Positions 1-4,828 of a stretch of 4,828 nucleotides of DNA are shown piece by piece (within the stretch, counting starts at the first letter, position 1; every line of letters begins with the position of its first letter). The notes beneath the pieces were generated by a model that saw only the letters and a list, made by a program, of their open reading frames with translations, was not told the origin of the DNA and made no database searches. The position numbers were made by a program, and so were the translations under genes. This DNA comes from a virus (Duplodnaviria > Heunggongvirae > Uroviricota > Caudoviricetes), in IMG/VR virus record IMGVR_UViG_2541047125_000007. The stretch is one strand, 5' to 3'.

Positions 1-1
1 C

Positions 2-53
2 ATTGATGTCACGACGGAAGATTTAGCAAGTGCGCTTGATGTGACGGAAGACG
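2..53. repeat. Two direct iteron-like repeats (TTGATGTCACGACGGAAGA and TTGATGTGACGGAAGACG)
   Basis: Copy 1 is at about 3-21 and copy 2 at about 36-53, differing by a 3-nt indel and one substitution. Both contain the GTCAC/GTGAC core seen in the downstream iterons and encode a repeated DVT(T)ED peptide in the initiator. Confidence 0.4.
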
Positions 54-865
54 TAATTGATTCAATTTTGCATGCAATGCAGGGGCGGGTTCTGGATGGT
101 GACCTTATTTCCGGATGGGAAAAACGTCAGGTGCTGAAAGAGGACAATGGTAATGTTTCGCAAACCGCAAAATCCCCGGCAGAGCGCAAGAGAGCGCAGC
201 GGGAGCGGGAAAGACTGCGGAAGCAGAACACTGATTGTCACGATGAGTCACGACGCGTCACGCATATGTCACGACAAGTCACGACAGATACAGATACAGA
301 TAAAGAATTAAACCCCACACATAACGCGCGCATGCGCGAGAGTGCTCCGACCAGTGAGTCGAATGGCGCGCCGTTGCAGACAGCCGAACCTGAATACCTG
401 GACGGCCTGAGCGAACCGATCGGGAAATTTCCGATGACTGGTGTCTGGCAGCCGTCGCCGGATTTTCGACAGCGGGCAGCAGTGTGGGGTATGGCTCTGC
501 CTGAGCCTGAGTTTACACCTGCTGAGCTTGCCGCATTCCGGGATTACTGGATGGCGGAGGGGAAGGTTTTCACGCAGGTTCAGTGGGAGCAGAAATTTGC
601 CCGTCACGTGCAGCACGTCAGGGCACAGGTAAAACCAGTCAGCAAGGGGGGAAGCCATGCAGCATCAGGTGGCACGGCATCACGGGCAGTTCAGGAAATC
701 CGGGCTGCACGCGAACAGTGGGAACGTGACAACGGATTTATCAGCAACGGAAACGGCCTGGAAGCTGTGGGAGCTCATGGGGGAGGTGTATTCGAACCGC
801 TGGACTCAGAAGAACGGGGCCGCACCTTCGAAGCTCTGGATTGCCCAGATTGGTGCGATGACTGA
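2..865 (+). CDS. Phage replication initiator, 5'-partial, with a DnaT-like C-terminal domain
   Basis: The frame is open from window position 2 with no upstream stop, so the true start lies left of the window (the ORF track's GTG at 41 is internal). Stop is TGA at 863-865. Residues from about nt 410-630 (PIGKFPMTGVWQPSPDF...FTPAELAAFRDYWMAEGKVFTQVQWEQKFARHVQ) closely match my recollection of the C-terminal ssDNA-binding domain of E. coli primosomal protein DnaT. A basic linker (AERKRAQRERERLRKQ) is followed by the iteron-encoded segment, as in lambda O-type initiators with an internal ori. Confidence 0.8.
   Translation: MDVTTEDLASALDVTEDVIDSILHAMQGRVLDGDLISGWEKRQVLKEDNGNVSQTAKSPAERKRAQRERERLRKQNTDCHDESRRVTHMSRQVTTDTDTDKELNPTHNARMRESAPTSESNGAPLQTAEPEYLDGLSEPIGKFPMTGVWQPSPDFRQRAAVWGMALPEPEFTPAELAAFRDYWMAEGKVFTQVQWEQKFARHVQHVRAQVKPVSKGGSHAASGGTASRAVQEIRAAREQWERDNGFISNGNGLEAVGAHGGGVFEPLDSEERGRTFEALDCPDWCDD
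233..340. repeat. Putative replication origin: five helically phased TCACGAC-type iterons, an AT-rich tract, then a 12-bp GC palindrome
   Basis: TCACG cores start at 238, 248, 258, 269 and 279 (spacing 10, 10, 11, 10 bp). They are followed by (GATACA)-like repeats and the AT-rich stretch agatacagatacagataaagaattaaa (about 285-311), then the perfect palindrome CGCGCATGCGCG at 327-338. This is the same order of elements as ori-lambda, which lies inside the O gene. Confidence 0.6.
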
Positions 866-1319
866 ACAGCAAATCCGTCTGGTGTGCCGTCAGTGCATGG
901 ACCGCTGCCGGGCGGGTGAAACGTGGCCCCCGGACCTGGCTGAGTTTGTTGCGCTGATTTCGGAGAGTGGGGCAAATCCATTTGGTCTTACGGTGGATGC
1001 CGTGATGGAAGAGTACCGGCGCTGGCGCAATGAATCCTGGCGATACGACGGGAGTGATAAATACCCGTGGCCACAGCCTGTGCTGTACCACATCTGCCTC
1101 GAAATGCGTACCAGAGGGATTGAGCGCCAGATGACGCAAGGTGAGTTAAAACGACTTGCAGAACGGCAACTGACGAAATGGGCAAAGCAAGTTGGTAACG
1201 GGATGAGTATTCCCCCGATCCGGAGACAACTCGCATCGCCGAAGTGCCCGCAAGGGCCAACGCCAATTGAATTACTGAAACAGGAATACGAGCGCCGGAA
1301 GGCGGCTGGTTTTGTTTGA
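657..1319 (+). CDS. P: Lambda P-like replication protein (DnaB helicase loader family)
   Basis: The C-terminal two thirds align by eye with lambda P (WPPDLAEFVAL ~ FLPSPGQFVAW; YPW; GELKRLAERQL ~ AELRRKAADEL; IPPIRRQL ~ IPEPVKQL). ATG at 657 is preceded by a strong SD (AAGGGGGGAAG at 644-654), and the frame opens just after a TAA at 630-632. Stop is TGA at 1317-1319. Alternative starts are ATG 777 (GGGAG SD) or ATG 858; the N-terminal similarity to lambda P seems to extend upstream of 858, favouring 657 or 777. Confidence 0.75.
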   Translation: MQHQVARHHGQFRKSGLHANSGNVTTDLSATETAWKLWELMGEVYSNRWTQKNGAAPSKLWIAQIGAMTEQQIRLVCRQCMDRCRAGETWPPDLAEFVALISESGANPFGLTVDAVMEEYRRWRNESWRYDGSDKYPWPQPVLYHICLEMRTRGIERQMTQGELKRLAERQLTKWAKQVGNGMSIPPIRRQLASPKCPQGPTPIELLKQEYERRKAAGFV

Positions 1320-1352
1320 ATCTGAGAAACGATTTTGTCGGAGGAAATTTTA

Positions 1353-2069
1353 ATGGAAACCGTATCTGACGCACTGAAAGCACTGAAAAAAGCCTCTTCA
1401 CATGTGGTGGCAGCTCGCCTTGGAATCAGTCGTGAAGAGGCTGTCAACGAACTGTGGAAACTGAAACGCCGTGGAGAAGCGGATAACAAGGGGGCGATAT
1501 GGTGGCTGACTCAGGCTGGTGAAAGTGAACCGGTGTCACCGGTACCGAAAGTGACGGCGCAAATGCTGACAGAGGCGATTGAACAACATGGCCCACAAAC
1601 GGCGGATGAACTGGCATTGATGTTCGGAATTACCTCCCGCCGGGCGAATTCATCGCTGGCAATGGCAATCAGCAAAGGGTGTCTGATTCGCGTGAATCAG
1701 GATGGTAAATTTCGTTACTGCATACCGGGCGTTGATTTACCGGCAGAGCCGAAAGCAGCATCCGTAGCTGAAACGGAGGGTAAAGCCCTTCCTCAGCCAG
1801 CTGGTGTTGCGTTACCAGTCCAGGAAACGGCTGCACAGGAAGAAATTAAAACAGAAGCGGTGGAGGACATTGTGAAGTTGCAGCAATCGTTCACTGAAGC
1901 GAAAGCAGATGACCTGATTCTACCATCGCTGCATGTGGCTAACCGCGAGCTGCGCCGGGCGAAAAGTAATGTTCAGAAGTGGGAGCGAGTCTGTGCTGCG
2001 CTACGGGAACTGAACAAACACAGGGATATTCTCCGGGATATTACCGCCACCAGAGAGCAGCAGCGGTGA
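1353..2069 (+). CDS. Hypothetical protein with two winged-helix-like segments and a C-terminal coiled-coil-like region
   Basis: ATG at 1353 with SD GGAGGAA at 1340-1346 (the ORF track's 1335 start is a TTG in the same frame). Stop is TGA at 2067-2069. The segments [38 protein letters not shown] and [43 protein letters not shown] look like tandem wHTH units; the charged, heptad-like C-terminus suggests oligomerisation. It may belong to a DUF-type phage family, but I cannot confirm this from memory. Confidence 0.7.
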
Positions 2070-2383
2070 GTGGCTGGAAGAAGTGGCGCTGGGCTGAAAT
2101 CCTGATACTCCGGCAGTGTGCGGGAACGATGAGAGTCGAAAGCATCGGTTATCTGATTGGCCGTAGTGAGTCAGCCGTCAGGACGAAAGCGCGGGAACTG
2201 GGTATCAGCATGATGTTACGGGGTGATTATCACCAGTCAGCCAAATGTTCACAGCGTGATATTGAGCTGGCGTGGCAACTGCATCAGCGTGGTGTACCCC
2301 GACGGGAAATTGCCGAAAAGTTTGGGATGAAGTTGGGCGCAGTGAATAACTACGTTTATTTCGACAGGAGGGTTCAGGAGTGA
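2066..2383 (+). CDS. Small helix-turn-helix DNA-binding protein
   Basis: GTG at 2066 overlaps the upstream stop as GTGA (translational coupling); alternative start is ATG 2111. Stop is TGA at 2381-2383. [35 protein letters not shown] is a classic HTH of the resolvase or sigma region-4 type, and the N-terminal half ([10 protein letters not shown]...[24 protein letters not shown]) resembles a second DNA-binding motif. The upstream part of the track ORF (from 1979) lies inside the previous gene. Confidence 0.6.
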
Positions 2384-2682
2384 GGGTGAGGGTTTATATC
2401 GCCGGTCCGATGACGGGATATGAAAATTTTAACCGCGAGGCATTTCACAAAACGGAAGAGGTGCTGAAACGGGAAGGGCATACCGTTTTAAACCCGGCAG
2501 TACTTCCGGACGGGCTGACTCAGCCACACTACATGGATATTTGCATGGCAATGCTCCGTTGCGTGGATGCGGTTTACATGCTGAAAGGCTGGCAGCAGTC
2601 GGCAGGTGCAGGGGCTGAGCTGGCACTGGAGGAGAAACCGGGCCATGCGGTGATTTTTCAGGAGGTGGGCAGTGAATATTGA
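2380..2682 (+). CDS. DUF4406-like protein (nucleoside 2-deoxyribosyltransferase-like fold)
   Basis: GTG at 2380 overlaps the upstream stop (GTGA) with AGGAGG at 2366-2371; alternative GTG at 2386 has AGGAG 5 nt upstream. Stop is TGA at 2680-2682. The motifs VYIAGPMTG near the N-terminus and GW..SAGAGAE.A.A...G..V near the C-terminus fit this superfamily as I recall it. Confidence 0.7.
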   Translation: MRVRVYIAGPMTGYENFNREAFHKTEEVLKREGHTVLNPAVLPDGLTQPHYMDICMAMLRCVDAVYMLKGWQQSAGAGAELALEEKPGHAVIFQEVGSEY

Positions 2683-2989
2683 CCCGGCGATAACGATTGA
2701 TATGGCCCTGAACGCCGGCCTGGCACTTCTTGGTTATTTCTACATTATGTTCTGCAGCGGACGATGGCTGTCACTGTTGTTCATGAAAAAATGGAATAAA
2801 CGCCGTAAGCAGGAGCAACGCCAGAAGGCAATGGATGCATTTTTCGAAGCCTTCGGAATTGACGGCATGGAACCAGGGGATCCAGCTCGCGCAATCAGCA
2901 GAGGGGGTGTAGTAATCCTTGTATATCGGAGTGAAGAGAAAAATGACGATCACAAAACAACGTGTAGAAGAAATCATATCCCGCATTGA
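2672..2989 (+). CDS. Small membrane protein with one predicted TM helix and a basic juxtamembrane segment
   Basis: GTG at 2672 has AGGAGG 6 nt upstream and overlaps the previous gene by 11 nt; alternative start is ATG 2702. Stop is TGA at 2987-2989. The hydrophobic stretch ALNAGLALLGYFYIMFCSGRWLSLLFM is followed by KKWNKRRKQEQRQK. Confidence 0.55.
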   Translation: MNIDPAITIDMALNAGLALLGYFYIMFCSGRWLSLLFMKKWNKRRKQEQRQKAMDAFFEAFGIDGMEPGDPARAISRGGVVILVYRSEEKNDDHKTTCRRNHIPH

Positions 2990-3260
2990 AATGTATGGAC
3001 ATGGTGCAGGGTATATCGCAGACGAGGTTAATGATCTGGCTATACTGGCGCTGAATTTATCAAATATCGCGAACCTGAAGCGATACGAGCTTGATATGGG
3101 AGGTTGCGACTCGTGCGGTCAGGATTGTGGCGCTGATATGACTGAAGATCCTGATGGTGATTATGTCCTGTTTGATGACGTGGTTAAGTTGTTTGAATTT
3201 GATACAACCACTCAAAAGTTAGAAATCCCGGCAAAGGAGGCAGCCAGTGGGCAAGATTGA
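2943..3260 (+). CDS. Small strongly acidic protein with a Cys cluster (CDSCGQDCG)
   Basis: ATG at 2943 is preceded by GGAGTGAAGAG; the ORF track's 2919 start is a TTG in the same frame. Stop is TGA at 3258-3260. By manual count there are about 20 or more Asp/Glu against fewer than 10 Lys/Arg in about 105 aa. The start overlaps the 3' end of the membrane-protein gene by 47 nt, so the start is uncertain (alternative ATG 2991). Confidence 0.55.
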   Translation: MTITKQRVEEIISRIEMYGHGAGYIADEVNDLAILALNLSNIANLKRYELDMGGCDSCGQDCGADMTEDPDGDYVLFDDVVKLFEFDTTTQKLEIPAKEAASGQD

Positions 3261-3684
3261 CTATCAGGCACTGCGTGAGGCAGCACAAAACTATCAATCG
3301 ACGCTGGCGTGGTATCAGGCTACCCCGGACAGCCCAAATGCTGAACGGGATTGTGATGCGGCTCTTGCTGCGTTTAAGCGTCACATCCGTCATCGGGAAG
3401 CGGATATTATCGCTGATTTGCTGGATGGACTGGAAGAAGCAAAATCACAACTCAACGAGCAGCGTGAGTATTACGAAGGCGTTATCTCTGATGGGAGCAA
3501 GCGTATTGCTGAACTGGAAGCGCGGGAAGTTCAATTACCGACTCGCTACGACCTTCGATATGGACACCCGATAAATGCAGATGAGCGACATGTCATGATA
3601 CCTAAAGAAAATGGCAGTTGGCTTTACCTGATTGACCTAGAACACGCATTACGCGTCGCTGGCATTCGCATCAAAGGAGAGTGA
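3247..3684 (+). CDS. Hypothetical protein with an Ea22-like N-terminal motif and a coiled-coil-like middle region
   Basis: GTG at 3247 with SD AAGGAGG at 3232-3238; stop is TGA at 3682-3684. The N-terminus IDYQALREAAQNY resembles the conserved N-terminus I recall for ead/Ea22-like prophage proteins (low-confidence family call). The central EADIIADLLDGLEEAKSQLNEQREYYEG...AELEAREVQ is heptad-like. Confidence 0.6.
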   Translation: MGKIDYQALREAAQNYQSTLAWYQATPDSPNAERDCDAALAAFKRHIRHREADIIADLLDGLEEAKSQLNEQREYYEGVISDGSKRIAELEAREVQLPTRYDLRYGHPINADERHVMIPKENGSWLYLIDLEHALRVAGIRIKGE

Positions 3685-3685
3685 G

Positions 3686-3877
3686 ATGAACGGACAAATA
3701 TCAATTGTTCGACCAGGAGCATGTGACGATCGCGAAATACGAATGATTATTCGTCTGGCGATGGGGAAAACAATAACTGCTCTCATTACTCCAGAAAATC
3801 TCGCATTAGCATTAACAGGAAAGTCAGACATGCCAGTAGAGCTAAAGCTGCGAAATGTTGAGATTAAGGTGAAATAG
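3686..3877 (+). CDS. Small hypothetical protein (63 aa)
   Basis: ATG at 3686 is 2 nt after the upstream stop, with SD AAAGGAGAG at 3672-3680. Stop is TAG at 3875-3877. No recognisable motif. Confidence 0.5.
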   Translation: MNGQISIVRPGACDDREIRMIIRLAMGKTITALITPENLALALTGKSDMPVELKLRNVEIKVK

Positions 3878-3879
3878 CT

Positions 3880-4437
3880 ATGACCACTATTACCAAAGAT
3901 CGACTGCTGACAATCCAGCATTGGCGCGAAACATACGGACCGGGTAGCAACGTTGTGCTTCCAGCAGAAGAAGCGGAAGAGCTGGCACGGATTGCGCTGG
4001 CATCACTGGCAGCAGTATCGGATGAACGAGCAGCCTATGAATTATTTATGGAGAAGCGTTTCGGAGAATCTGTAGATCGCCGCAGAGCAAAAAATGGCGA
4101 TAGAGAATACATGGCATGGGATATGGCGCTTGGCTGGATTATCTGGTGTCACCGCGCCGCCATGCTTCAGGCTGGAAACTTTCGGGAAAATAAGGGTTCG
4201 TCAACCAATAATTTTCGGATAATCTCGGAAACGTCAACCAACTCTCCGGCAATCCCTGATGAGGTGTTGTCCGCAATCCTGAAGGTCGCCAGGCTTCGTG
4301 CAGATTTCGATGCTTCTGAAGTGGACAGGCGAGGTATCGGTAGTTGTCTGGATGAGGCCGAGCAAGAACTTATCGTTACCATTAACGAATACGCCAGTCA
4401 GATCGCAGTAGAAGCGACACAGGGGGAGAACCAATGA
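3880..4437 (+). CDS. Hypothetical phage protein (185 aa)
   Basis: ATG at 3880 is 2 nt after the upstream stop, with a weak SD (AAGGTGA). Stop is TGA at 4435-4437. It is in the same orientation and tightly packed with its neighbours. I do not recognise the family with confidence. Confidence 0.65.
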   Translation: MTTITKDRLLTIQHWRETYGPGSNVVLPAEEAEELARIALASLAAVSDERAAYELFMEKRFGESVDRRRAKNGDREYMAWDMALGWIIWCHRAAMLQAGNFRENKGSSTNNFRIISETSTNSPAIPDEVLSAILKVARLRADFDASEVDRRGIGSCLDEAEQELIVTINEYASQIAVEATQGENQ

Positions 4438-4511
4438 GCCGGCCAGATGCATTTGCAGGCGTTGCTATAGCTATTGCTTTTCTAGTATATGTTATTTGTC
4501 GGTGGGGGTAA
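4434..4511 (+). CDS. Putative 25-aa hydrophobic micro-peptide (MSRPDAFAGVAIAIAFLVYVICRWG)
   Basis: ATG at 4434 overlaps the upstream stop as ATGA and has a strong SD (AGGGGGAG at 4421-4428). Stop is TAA at 4509-4511. It has a single TM-like hydrophobic core and falls below the ORF-track length cutoff. Confidence 0.35.
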   Translation: MSRPDAFAGVAIAIAFLVYVICRWG

Positions 4512-4546: not shown

Positions 4547-4651
4547 ATGTCGGATGATATTTCACTGGTAATGGAAGGCGCTCTGGCTGTTATTGCTGTT
4601 GTGGGTGTTTACTGCCTGGTTGTGTTTTTGATGGAGCGCCTGGGGAACTGA
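4547..4651 (+). CDS. Putative 34-aa hydrophobic micro-peptide (MSDDISLVMEGALAVIAVVGVYCLVVFLMERLGN)
   Basis: ATG at 4547 has a strong SD (AAGGGAGGG at 4535-4543, 3-4 nt spacing). Stop is TGA at 4649-4651. It has an acidic N-terminus and a TM-like core, and falls below the ORF-track length cutoff. Confidence 0.4.
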   Translation: MSDDISLVMEGALAVIAVVGVYCLVVFLMERLGN

Positions 4652-4677: not shown

Positions 4678-4828
4678 TCGGGCAAAACGGTTTGCTGTAA
4701 AGCGAGAGTTAAGTAGAATTGCTGCGGGTGCTTGAGGCTGTCTGCCTCGGGCATGCCACCGTAAGGTAGACAGAGAAAAGCCCCAGTTAACATTACGCGT
4801 CCTGCAAGACGCCTAACATTAATCTGAG

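Follow-up and report, generated by a model that had tools for sequence, protein, structure and literature searches.

Among the closest described systems are the Ea22 proteins of lambda and its relatives. Goddard et al. (2024) report that Ea22 proteins are mosaic and that their C-terminal domains, however they differ in sequence, are generally acidic and form dimers; a mobile loop that is conserved was proposed as the ligand for a host partner (PMC10834534). Ea22 favours lysogeny, and two-hybrid screens with lambda Ea22 yielded no partner. The discussion section of that study also connects oxidative-stress responses with Ea22 and with the DUF551 protein YfdS (PMC10834534).

We analyzed a stretch of phage DNA of 4,828 nucleotides (the window), in which an Ead/Ea22-like gene is preceded by a gene for a small, strongly acidic protein, the target of this study. 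By sequence, the window matches a Rac-like/lambdoid prophage adjoining potCD in E. coli O157:H7. Positions 2600-3700 are 100% identical to O157:H7 chromosomes, including that of strain TR01, and comparison with TR01 gives 98.5% identity over 1-4255 and divergence at 4256-4447. The TR01 prophage carries an integrase, an excisionase, racR, a YdaT-type protein and DnaT-like and P-like replication genes. All genes of the window lie on the + strand and are closely packed, and no sigma-70-like promoter was found on the + strand of the window. The genes are arranged as follows.

..865, + strand, DnaT-like protein.
858-1319, + strand, replication protein P (RefSeq start; the longest ORF runs from 657).
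1353-2069, + strand, DUF1627 protein.
2069-2383, + strand, helix-turn-helix protein.
2380-2682, + strand, DUF4406 protein.
2672-2989, + strand, DUF4752 protein; the Pfam domain covers residues 7-90 of 105.
2943..3260, + strand, target gene; 105 aa, pI 4.11, net charge -14, phrog_3126, called from the ORF, RefSeq and dN/dS.
3247-3684, + strand, Ead/Ea22-like gene; Pfam Ead_Ea22 at E 2.2e-13, overlapping the target end by 14 nt.
3686-3877, + strand, 63-aa protein.
3880-4437, + strand, 185-aa protein, two genes downstream of the target; its N-terminus is a paralogue of the target's N-terminal module.

The target gene starts with the ATG at 2943, stops at 3258-3260 and encodes a product of 105 aa. 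RefSeq holds a CDS with identical coordinates, WP_000156547.1, annotated as 'hypothetical protein'. The gene is under purifying selection: in comparisons with homologues of E. coli prophages, of P22-like phage Sf101 and of virulent phage Bas80, dN/dS is 0.10-0.15. It is carried by 533 of 5,426 complete E. coli genomes (~10%). Together the RefSeq coordinates, the selection and the carriage show that this frame is a real gene. Furthermore, 74 phage records contain it. Close homologues (78-99% identity) are found in prophages of E. coli, Salmonella and Shigella, likewise in the distal PL 'ea' region of P22-like phages, and in virulent siphoviruses of ~47 kb, such as Skatevirus VSt472 and Bas80. 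No more than 7 plasmid records contain 80% or more of the protein; those for which a size was available are plasmids of ~110 kb, which we take to be phage-plasmids. Most of the 262 records that match the target are non-mobilizable. Given these record counts and mobility classes, a link to the leading regions of conjugative plasmids was dropped.

Database searches assigned the target to phrog_3126, a family with no functional annotation, with residues 1-105 aligned to profile positions 1-105 (E 2.5e-66, 221 bits). Pfam gave no family for it at E up to 0.1, an NCBIfam scan gave no match, and at E up to 1 PADLOC matched neither the target nor any of four neighbouring proteins. PDB sequences searched with the target-family profile at E up to 10 yielded no match above chance, and PDB sequence searches with the profile of the cassette described below, with the Ea22-like neighbour and with an Ea22-like cassette protein yielded chance matches only. 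No literature mention was found for WP_000156547.1, phrog_3126 or the cassette sequence, and the literature on DUF551 and on Ea22-like proteins together with defence contained nothing specific to the target protein.

The protein had been singled out for its strongly negative charge. Computation bears this out: 13 Asp and 9 Glu stand against 5 Lys and 3 Arg, giving a net charge of -14 and a pI of 4.11. Such acidity raises the possibility that the surface of the protein imitates DNA and thereby blocks type I restriction-modification, BREX or other DNA-binding defence, in the manner of Ocr and ArdA. The charge densities of small DNA mimics such as Ugi and AcrIIA4 span a range that probably includes that of the target. 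The surroundings of the gene point in the same direction: it lies in an early accessory operon with Ral and the anti-RecBCD protein Abc2 in a P22-like prophage, and in the virulent Skatevirus VSt472 the third gene upstream of it is a Pfam-confirmed Lar restriction-alleviation gene. This context is suggestive but weak, because such operons gather accessory genes of all sorts. Presence in both virulent and temperate phages is also what one would expect of a counter-defence gene that spreads horizontally.

Other results speak against DNA mimicry. The target is one of the two most acidic among the 32 proteins of the matching prophage, and the other, a DUF826 protein, has a pI of 4.06. The acidity is therefore marked, not unique, and taken alone it is weak evidence, because a second protein of the same prophage is equally acidic. 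The original prediction had seen no sequence similarity to Ocr or ArdA, and the searches agree: the target has no Pfam match at E up to 0.1, so it belongs to neither family, and no PDB sequence match. The scarcity of plasmid records holding most of the protein, and the predominance of non-mobilizable records among its matches, likewise count against a mimic. In addition, acidity and dimerization are general features of the published Ea22 C-terminal domains, which come with a pro-lysogenic phenotype (PMC10834534). Beyond charge and a loose operon context nothing was found in favour of DNA mimicry, which these results neither confirm nor refute; we regard it as rather improbable, and the distribution of the charge, described next, bears on it further.

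We examined the family at greater depth by searching 1.84 billion cluster representatives exhaustively with a profile, which gave 116 hits. Among the 109 cluster representatives outside the close family, 12 contain both parts of the target, 66 contain only its C-terminal cassette and 29 only its N-terminal module. Distant cassette-only proteins match phrog_3126 over profile positions ~40-85. These sequence comparisons demonstrate that the target is composed of two shuffled modules, a predicted helical-hairpin head (residues 1-43) and an acidic cassette (residues 44-86), and that phrog_3126 joins two modules whose evolution and shuffling are independent of each other. Within the target gene the parts are placed as follows.

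2943..3071, + strand, N-module, residues 1-43, MTITKQRVEEII...LAILALNL; AlphaFold2 helices 5-22 and 26-39, pLDDT ~70-74.
3072..3200, + strand, C-module, residues 44-86, acidic Cys-loop cassette LKRYELDMGGCDSCGQDCGADMTEDPDGDYVLFDDVVKLFEF, charge -9; present in at least 66 other representatives.
3105..3128, + strand, CDSCGQDC loop, residues 55-62; the C55/C62 pair is flanked by D56 and D61, according to column counts in 155 distinct cassette sequences.
3201..3260, + strand, tail, residues 87-105, predicted disordered; pLDDT <50 for residues 86-105.

The cassette itself is covered by no Pfam model. Its layout is R-[YF]-x-L, a Cys-pair loop, M-x-E-D-x-[DE]-G-[DE]-[YF]-V and then [DE]-V, with the full consensus [LI][KR]R[YF][DE]L-x(3,4)-C-D-S-[CF]-G-Q-D-C-G-A-[DE]-M-x-E-[DE]-x-[DE]-G-[DE]-[YF]-V-x-[FLW]-x-[DE]-V. 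It is found at the C-terminus of proteins matching Ead_Ea22, straight after the coiled coil; in P0148, P0160 and P0164 the Ead_Ea22 match extends over the N-terminal two-thirds and the cassette is C-terminal. In DUF551 proteins and in one dATP/dGTP (MazG-like) pyrophosphohydrolase it is close to the N-terminus, and it forms the C-terminus of a DUF3850/ASCH protein from a branch found in Aeromonas prophages. Lone small cassette proteins occur in metagenomic phages, where they adjoin Prim-Pol, helicase and nuclease genes, and a homologue search with a 49-residue cassette profile gave 19 hits, all of them short proteins. The N-module travels likewise: it is present on DUF551-type and Eae-annotated proteins and on proteins of P1-like phage-plasmids. 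In the window itself, target residues 2-80 align with residues 3-83 of the 185-aa protein downstream (hhalign probability 67%, E 5e-5). The 185-aa protein matches phrog_3323 and phrog_60, as does P0142, a cassette-bearing relative.

The modular layout also locates the charge, since residues 44-86 hold -9 of the net -14 of the target. Across the family the cassette has a mean net charge of -7.9, and its positions 56, 65, 69, 71, 73 and 79 are Asp or Glu in at least 89% of sequences. The Asp-rich stretch that had been pointed out, DMTEDPDGDYVLFDD, is indeed present and occupies residues 65-79, within the cassette. Conservation of these acidic positions, together with a charge of -14 and a pI of 4.11 in only 105 aa, would suit a DNA mimic. 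However, most of the charge sits in a 43-residue cassette that recurs within many architectures, and a binding or structural module accounts for this better than a DNA-shaped surface formed by the whole protein.

The complete 100-residue unit also forms the N-terminal part of longer proteins of 148-210 aa with varied C-terminal domains, for example the 205-aa Sf101_0022. One might see the target as a remnant without function: the N-terminal piece of a longer fusion protein, truncated and left behind by mosaic recombination. That 148-278-aa proteins start with the 100 residues of the target fits such an origin, and so does the abundance of recombination junctions in this region (the 47-nt overlap described below and the divergence from TR01 at 4256-4447). 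Against it, dN/dS stays at 0.10-0.15 across temperate and virulent phages, and conservation extends to the start context of the target and to the coupled start downstream. Furthermore, the stand-alone form of 100-105 aa is the commonest one: its cluster, P0002, comprises 562 sequences, found on 628 contigs, and among the 120 cluster representatives listed 57 are 100 aa long, many of them on ~47 kb contigs. We consider it very unlikely that the gene is such a leftover.

A CxxCxxxC cluster was the second feature for which the protein had been noted. The motif CDSCGQDC is present at residues 55-62, as claimed, but a three-Cys cluster is not conserved: position 58 is Cys in 109 of 155 distinct cassette sequences, Phe in 37 and another residue in 9. 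In the same set C55 is kept in 152 of 155 and C62 in all 155, although C55 is substituted in a few close homologues of the target; D56 is retained in 151 and D61 in 134. R47, C55, C62 and G72 are invariant or nearly so across cassettes. Since C58 varies and C55 and C62 are nearly invariant, the feature is an Asp-flanked Cys pair (C-D-x4-D-C) instead of a cluster of three. A conserved CxxCxxxC metal cluster was accordingly ruled out. That the three-Cys motif is not conserved weighs against the DNA-mimic explanation as well.

The conserved pair suggests another possibility, namely that C55 and C62, with D56 and D61, bind a metal such as Zn2+, perhaps at the interface of a dimer, or that they form a reversible disulfide which senses oxidative stress. 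In the latter variant the disulfide would be tied to H2O2-dependent prophage induction. The retention of all four residues (152, 155, 151 and 134 of 155, in the order C55, C62, D56, D61) speaks for such a role, and distant members of the cassette family retain two or three Cys, sometimes plus His. The reported link of Ea22 and YfdS to oxidative stress is consistent with the redox variant; this link, however, is a statement in the discussion section of that paper (PMC10834534). With only C55 and C62 conserved and Phe at position 58 in 37 of 155 sequences, one chain holds no complete Cys3 or Cys4 site. Zinc-finger and zinc-ribbon Pfam families gave no match above noise. We judge a metal or redox role to be unlikely, with the reservation that it overlaps with the explanation we prefer and does not exclude it.

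We modeled the target with AlphaFold2 on a 30-sequence alignment that included distant cassette proteins; an earlier AlphaFold model from a shallow alignment (pLDDT 56) was discarded. The model is of moderate confidence (mean pLDDT 67.9, pTM 0.42; ~66 in the Cys loop). Its N-module is predicted to form a hairpin of two helices, residues 5-22 and 26-39. In the cassette (pLDDT 66-85), a strand at 47-51 is followed by the Cys loop at 52-64, a strand at 65-68, a turn, a strand at 74-75 and a helix at 77-84, and the tail is disordered from residue 86. Fold searches with this moderate-confidence model (pLDDT 68) matched no solved fold, and neither Ocr nor ArdA was among the matches listed. Zinc-ribbon and treble-clef folds were not matched by the model either, which again disfavours a metal site. 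The solved C-terminal domain of lambda Ea22 was returned by neither the sequence nor the fold searches with the target.

The start of the target is overlapped by the preceding gene, as had been remarked. The overlap, confirmed for the DUF4752 ORF at 2672-2989, measures 47 nt, with the last 15 codons of DUF4752 (2942-2986) and its stop crossing the target start. In eight other contexts the stop of the upstream gene forms ATGA with the target start codon, a 4-nt overlap. The DUF4752 frame of the window misses this ATGA stop by one position and continues for 15 codons. Ordinary DUF4752 proteins are 94 aa long, and the tail of the 105-aa version in the window lies beyond the Pfam domain (7-90). 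The 47-nt junction is also present in one non-O157 strain. A pattern scan of the genome collection found no A-run variants at the DUF4752/target junction. These sequences suggest that the 47-nt overlap is incidental, a side effect of a mosaic junction, and was not designed. Upstream neighbours in other phages are also mosaic, and some carry Cys-less versions of the strand-loop-hairpin motif.

At its other end the target is joined to the Ead/Ea22-like gene. Both the Shine-Dalgarno sequence of this gene, AAGGAGG (3234-3240), and its GTG start (3247) lie within the DNA that encodes the target tail, and the gene is probably translationally coupled to the target. The order target then Ead_Ea22 is seen in the window, in 8 of 8 places examined for P0002 (the commonest homologue), in Sf101 and in PhiR12_2, and it recurs in 10 of 12 rows spread over the ranked list of the 533 matching E. 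coli genomes. The 14-nt overlap is found in every temperate-phage context examined, and 8 further loci show this junction. Not all carriers have the coupling: the Pfam-scanned neighbours of the target in virulent Skatevirus-type phages and Bas80 include no Ead_Ea22 gene. Two target-Ea22 fusion ORFs, P0121 and P0244, were considered as a 'Rosetta stone' link and dropped, being rare (clusters of one or two sequences); moreover, loss of one base within the 14-nt overlap could give rise to the P0121 fusion.

Comparison of Ea22-like proteins indicates where the cassette belongs in them. Those that bear the cassette read ...RIAELEAR..LPRYDL-[Cys cassette]-..AAGIK, and the Ea22-like neighbour in the window reads ...RIAELEAREVQLPTRYDL-[other sequence]-..VAGIRIKGE. 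The C-terminal part of the neighbour, LPTRYDLRYGHPINADERHVMIPKENGSWLYLIDLEHALRVAGIRIKGE, thus occupies the slot held by the Cys cassette in other Ea22-like proteins. The shared flanks around either the cassette or the other sequence indicate that the cassette fills the variable slot of the Ea22 C-terminal domain. An hhalign comparison of the cassette with the C-terminus of the neighbour placed the two in the same register, weakly (E 0.066, probability <1%). Homology between the cassette and the C-terminus of the window's own Ea22-like protein was therefore dropped for want of statistical support.

The explanation we favour, to which we give about an even chance, is that the target is a stand-alone, two-module member of the mosaic pool of the lambdoid 'ea/nin-region' (Ead/Ea22, Eae and DUF551 proteins), with an acidic binding module of the Ea22 type. 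The cassette would be a small strand-loop-hairpin-helix unit that displays its conserved acidic Cys/Asp loop for partner binding, and the partner would offer a probably basic surface on a host or phage protein. Accordingly, the loop is most likely a protein-binding element, possibly one that depends on metal or redox state. The 105-aa protein would then represent the minimal form, a head and a binding cassette without an effector domain. Produced together with the Ea22-like protein from the early operon, it may act with this protein in a pathway of host interaction that is not essential, which could be counter-defence or the bias between lysis and lysogeny that has been reported for Ea22.

A related idea is that the cassette is an undescribed portable 'warhead' or targeting module that binds a single shared target in the host, for instance a DNA-binding protein of defence or repair, or a regulator sensitive to redox state. 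In this view phages would have joined it to Ea22 coiled coils, DUF551, MazG-like pyrophosphohydrolase and ASCH proteins, and the 105-aa protein would be the free inhibitor form. We hold this to be doubtful. If true, it would define a new class of counter-defence or lysogeny control in temperate and virulent enterobacterial and Aeromonas phages, and if the partner were a defence protein, the cassette would, speculatively, be a new anti-defence module.

Recognition of a head plus a cassette turns an orphan protein into a handle on the mosaic pool of 'ea-region' proteins of the Ea22, Eae and DUF551 types. The protein is common, occurring in ~10% of complete E. coli genomes, in O157:H7 prophages and in Salmonella and Shigella phages, with both lifestyles represented. 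One partner found for the cassette would annotate dozens of protein families. At stake is a possible role of 'ea-region' proteins in lysogeny control of Shiga-toxin phages.

Set beside known systems, the target resembles T7 Ocr, ArdA, PBS2 Ugi and T4 Arn in being small, with a pI near 4, and in its phage early-gene context. It differs from them in that most of its charge resides in one 43-residue cassette, and no similarity to them was found in sequence or, with the moderate-confidence model, in fold. With DUF551- and Eae-type proteins (E. coli YfdS, the 'ea' genes of P22) it has in common the head MxTITKERL...LARIALASL, which in those proteins is often followed directly by the cassette. Unlike them, it lacks the DUF551 domain, with its THWMPLP-type C-terminus, and ends in a short disordered tail. 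The Ead/Ea22-like proteins (PF13935; lambda Ea22, P22 Ead) differ from the target in their Ead_Ea22 N-terminal region and coiled coil, both absent from the target, which does not match the Pfam model. Yet they occupy the same neighbourhood, where the Ead/Ea22-like gene adjoins the target, and in some bona fide members the C-terminal domain is the very cassette that the target carries.

Homologues of the acidic 105-aa protein are carried by two virulent phages, VSt472, a Skatevirus (locus L020), and Bas80 (locus L002), and we examined the genes beside them.

L020:2043-2501, VSt472 gp78, directly upstream of the homologue
L002:3528-4001, Bas80_0086, directly upstream of the homologue
L020:1623-1808, VSt472 gp76, Lar restriction-alleviation gene (PF14354, 42.9 bits; cut-off 28.6 bits)

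The N-termini of gp78 and Bas80_0086 are Cys-poor versions of the strand-loop-hairpin motif of the 105-aa protein (MSEVKRYDISAFGGMSMDECTDGAYVNYDDY; MSEVKTYAVNCNDAWLNTDGDDISGSYVKYADY), and their C-terminal ends harbor the TPATDAFLAEI...LRKG module common to the mosaic pool of lambdoid ea-region accessory proteins. The Lar gene of VSt472 lies three genes upstream of the homologue.

Within the window, the N-module of the acidic protein is also present in a 185-aa protein (3880-4437, +). Similarity of this gene to its counterpart in TR01, an E. coli O157:H7 strain with a matching prophage, where it is annotated as a DUF551 protein of 195 aa, is gone over 4256-4447. It marks a second intragenic mosaic junction of the window.

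Other features of the window and the prophage are listed next.

2380-2682, +, DUF4406 protein (phrog_355, E 4e-43)
L001:14897-15166, DUF826 protein of 89 aa, same prophage (pI 4.06, net charge -12)
4434-4511, +, hydrophobic ORF of 25 aa, beginning with ATGA where the 185-aa gene stops
4547-4651, +, hydrophobic ORF of 34 aa, preceded by a AAGGGAGGG ribosome-binding site
4726-4828, +, sok antitoxin RNA (Rfam RF01794, 61.3 bits; gathering score 59), truncated by the window end

Since phrog_355 is annotated as nucleoside 2-deoxyribosyltransferase, the DUF4406 gene is possibly a nucleotide-metabolism accessory gene in the operon of the acidic protein. The DUF826 protein equals the acidic protein in acidity, both being encoded by one prophage. 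The 34-aa ORF has its counterpart in a RefSeq hypothetical protein of 34 aa (pI 4.05), and both small ORFs may encode small membrane peptides. In TR01 the hokD toxin gene comes next after the sok position; from this and the sok match we infer that a hok/sok-type toxin-antitoxin locus begins at the window end.

Short direct repeats cluster at 3-51 and 236-306 (+), within the DnaT-like replication gene.

236-285, +, GTCACGAC-type units, spaced by 10-21 nt
3-51, +, TTGATGTCACG/GACGGAAGA pairs
ACAGATA repeats, following these units and pairs

By analogy, the clusters look like origin iterons inside an initiator gene, similarly to lambda O, which likewise carries iterons within the initiator gene.
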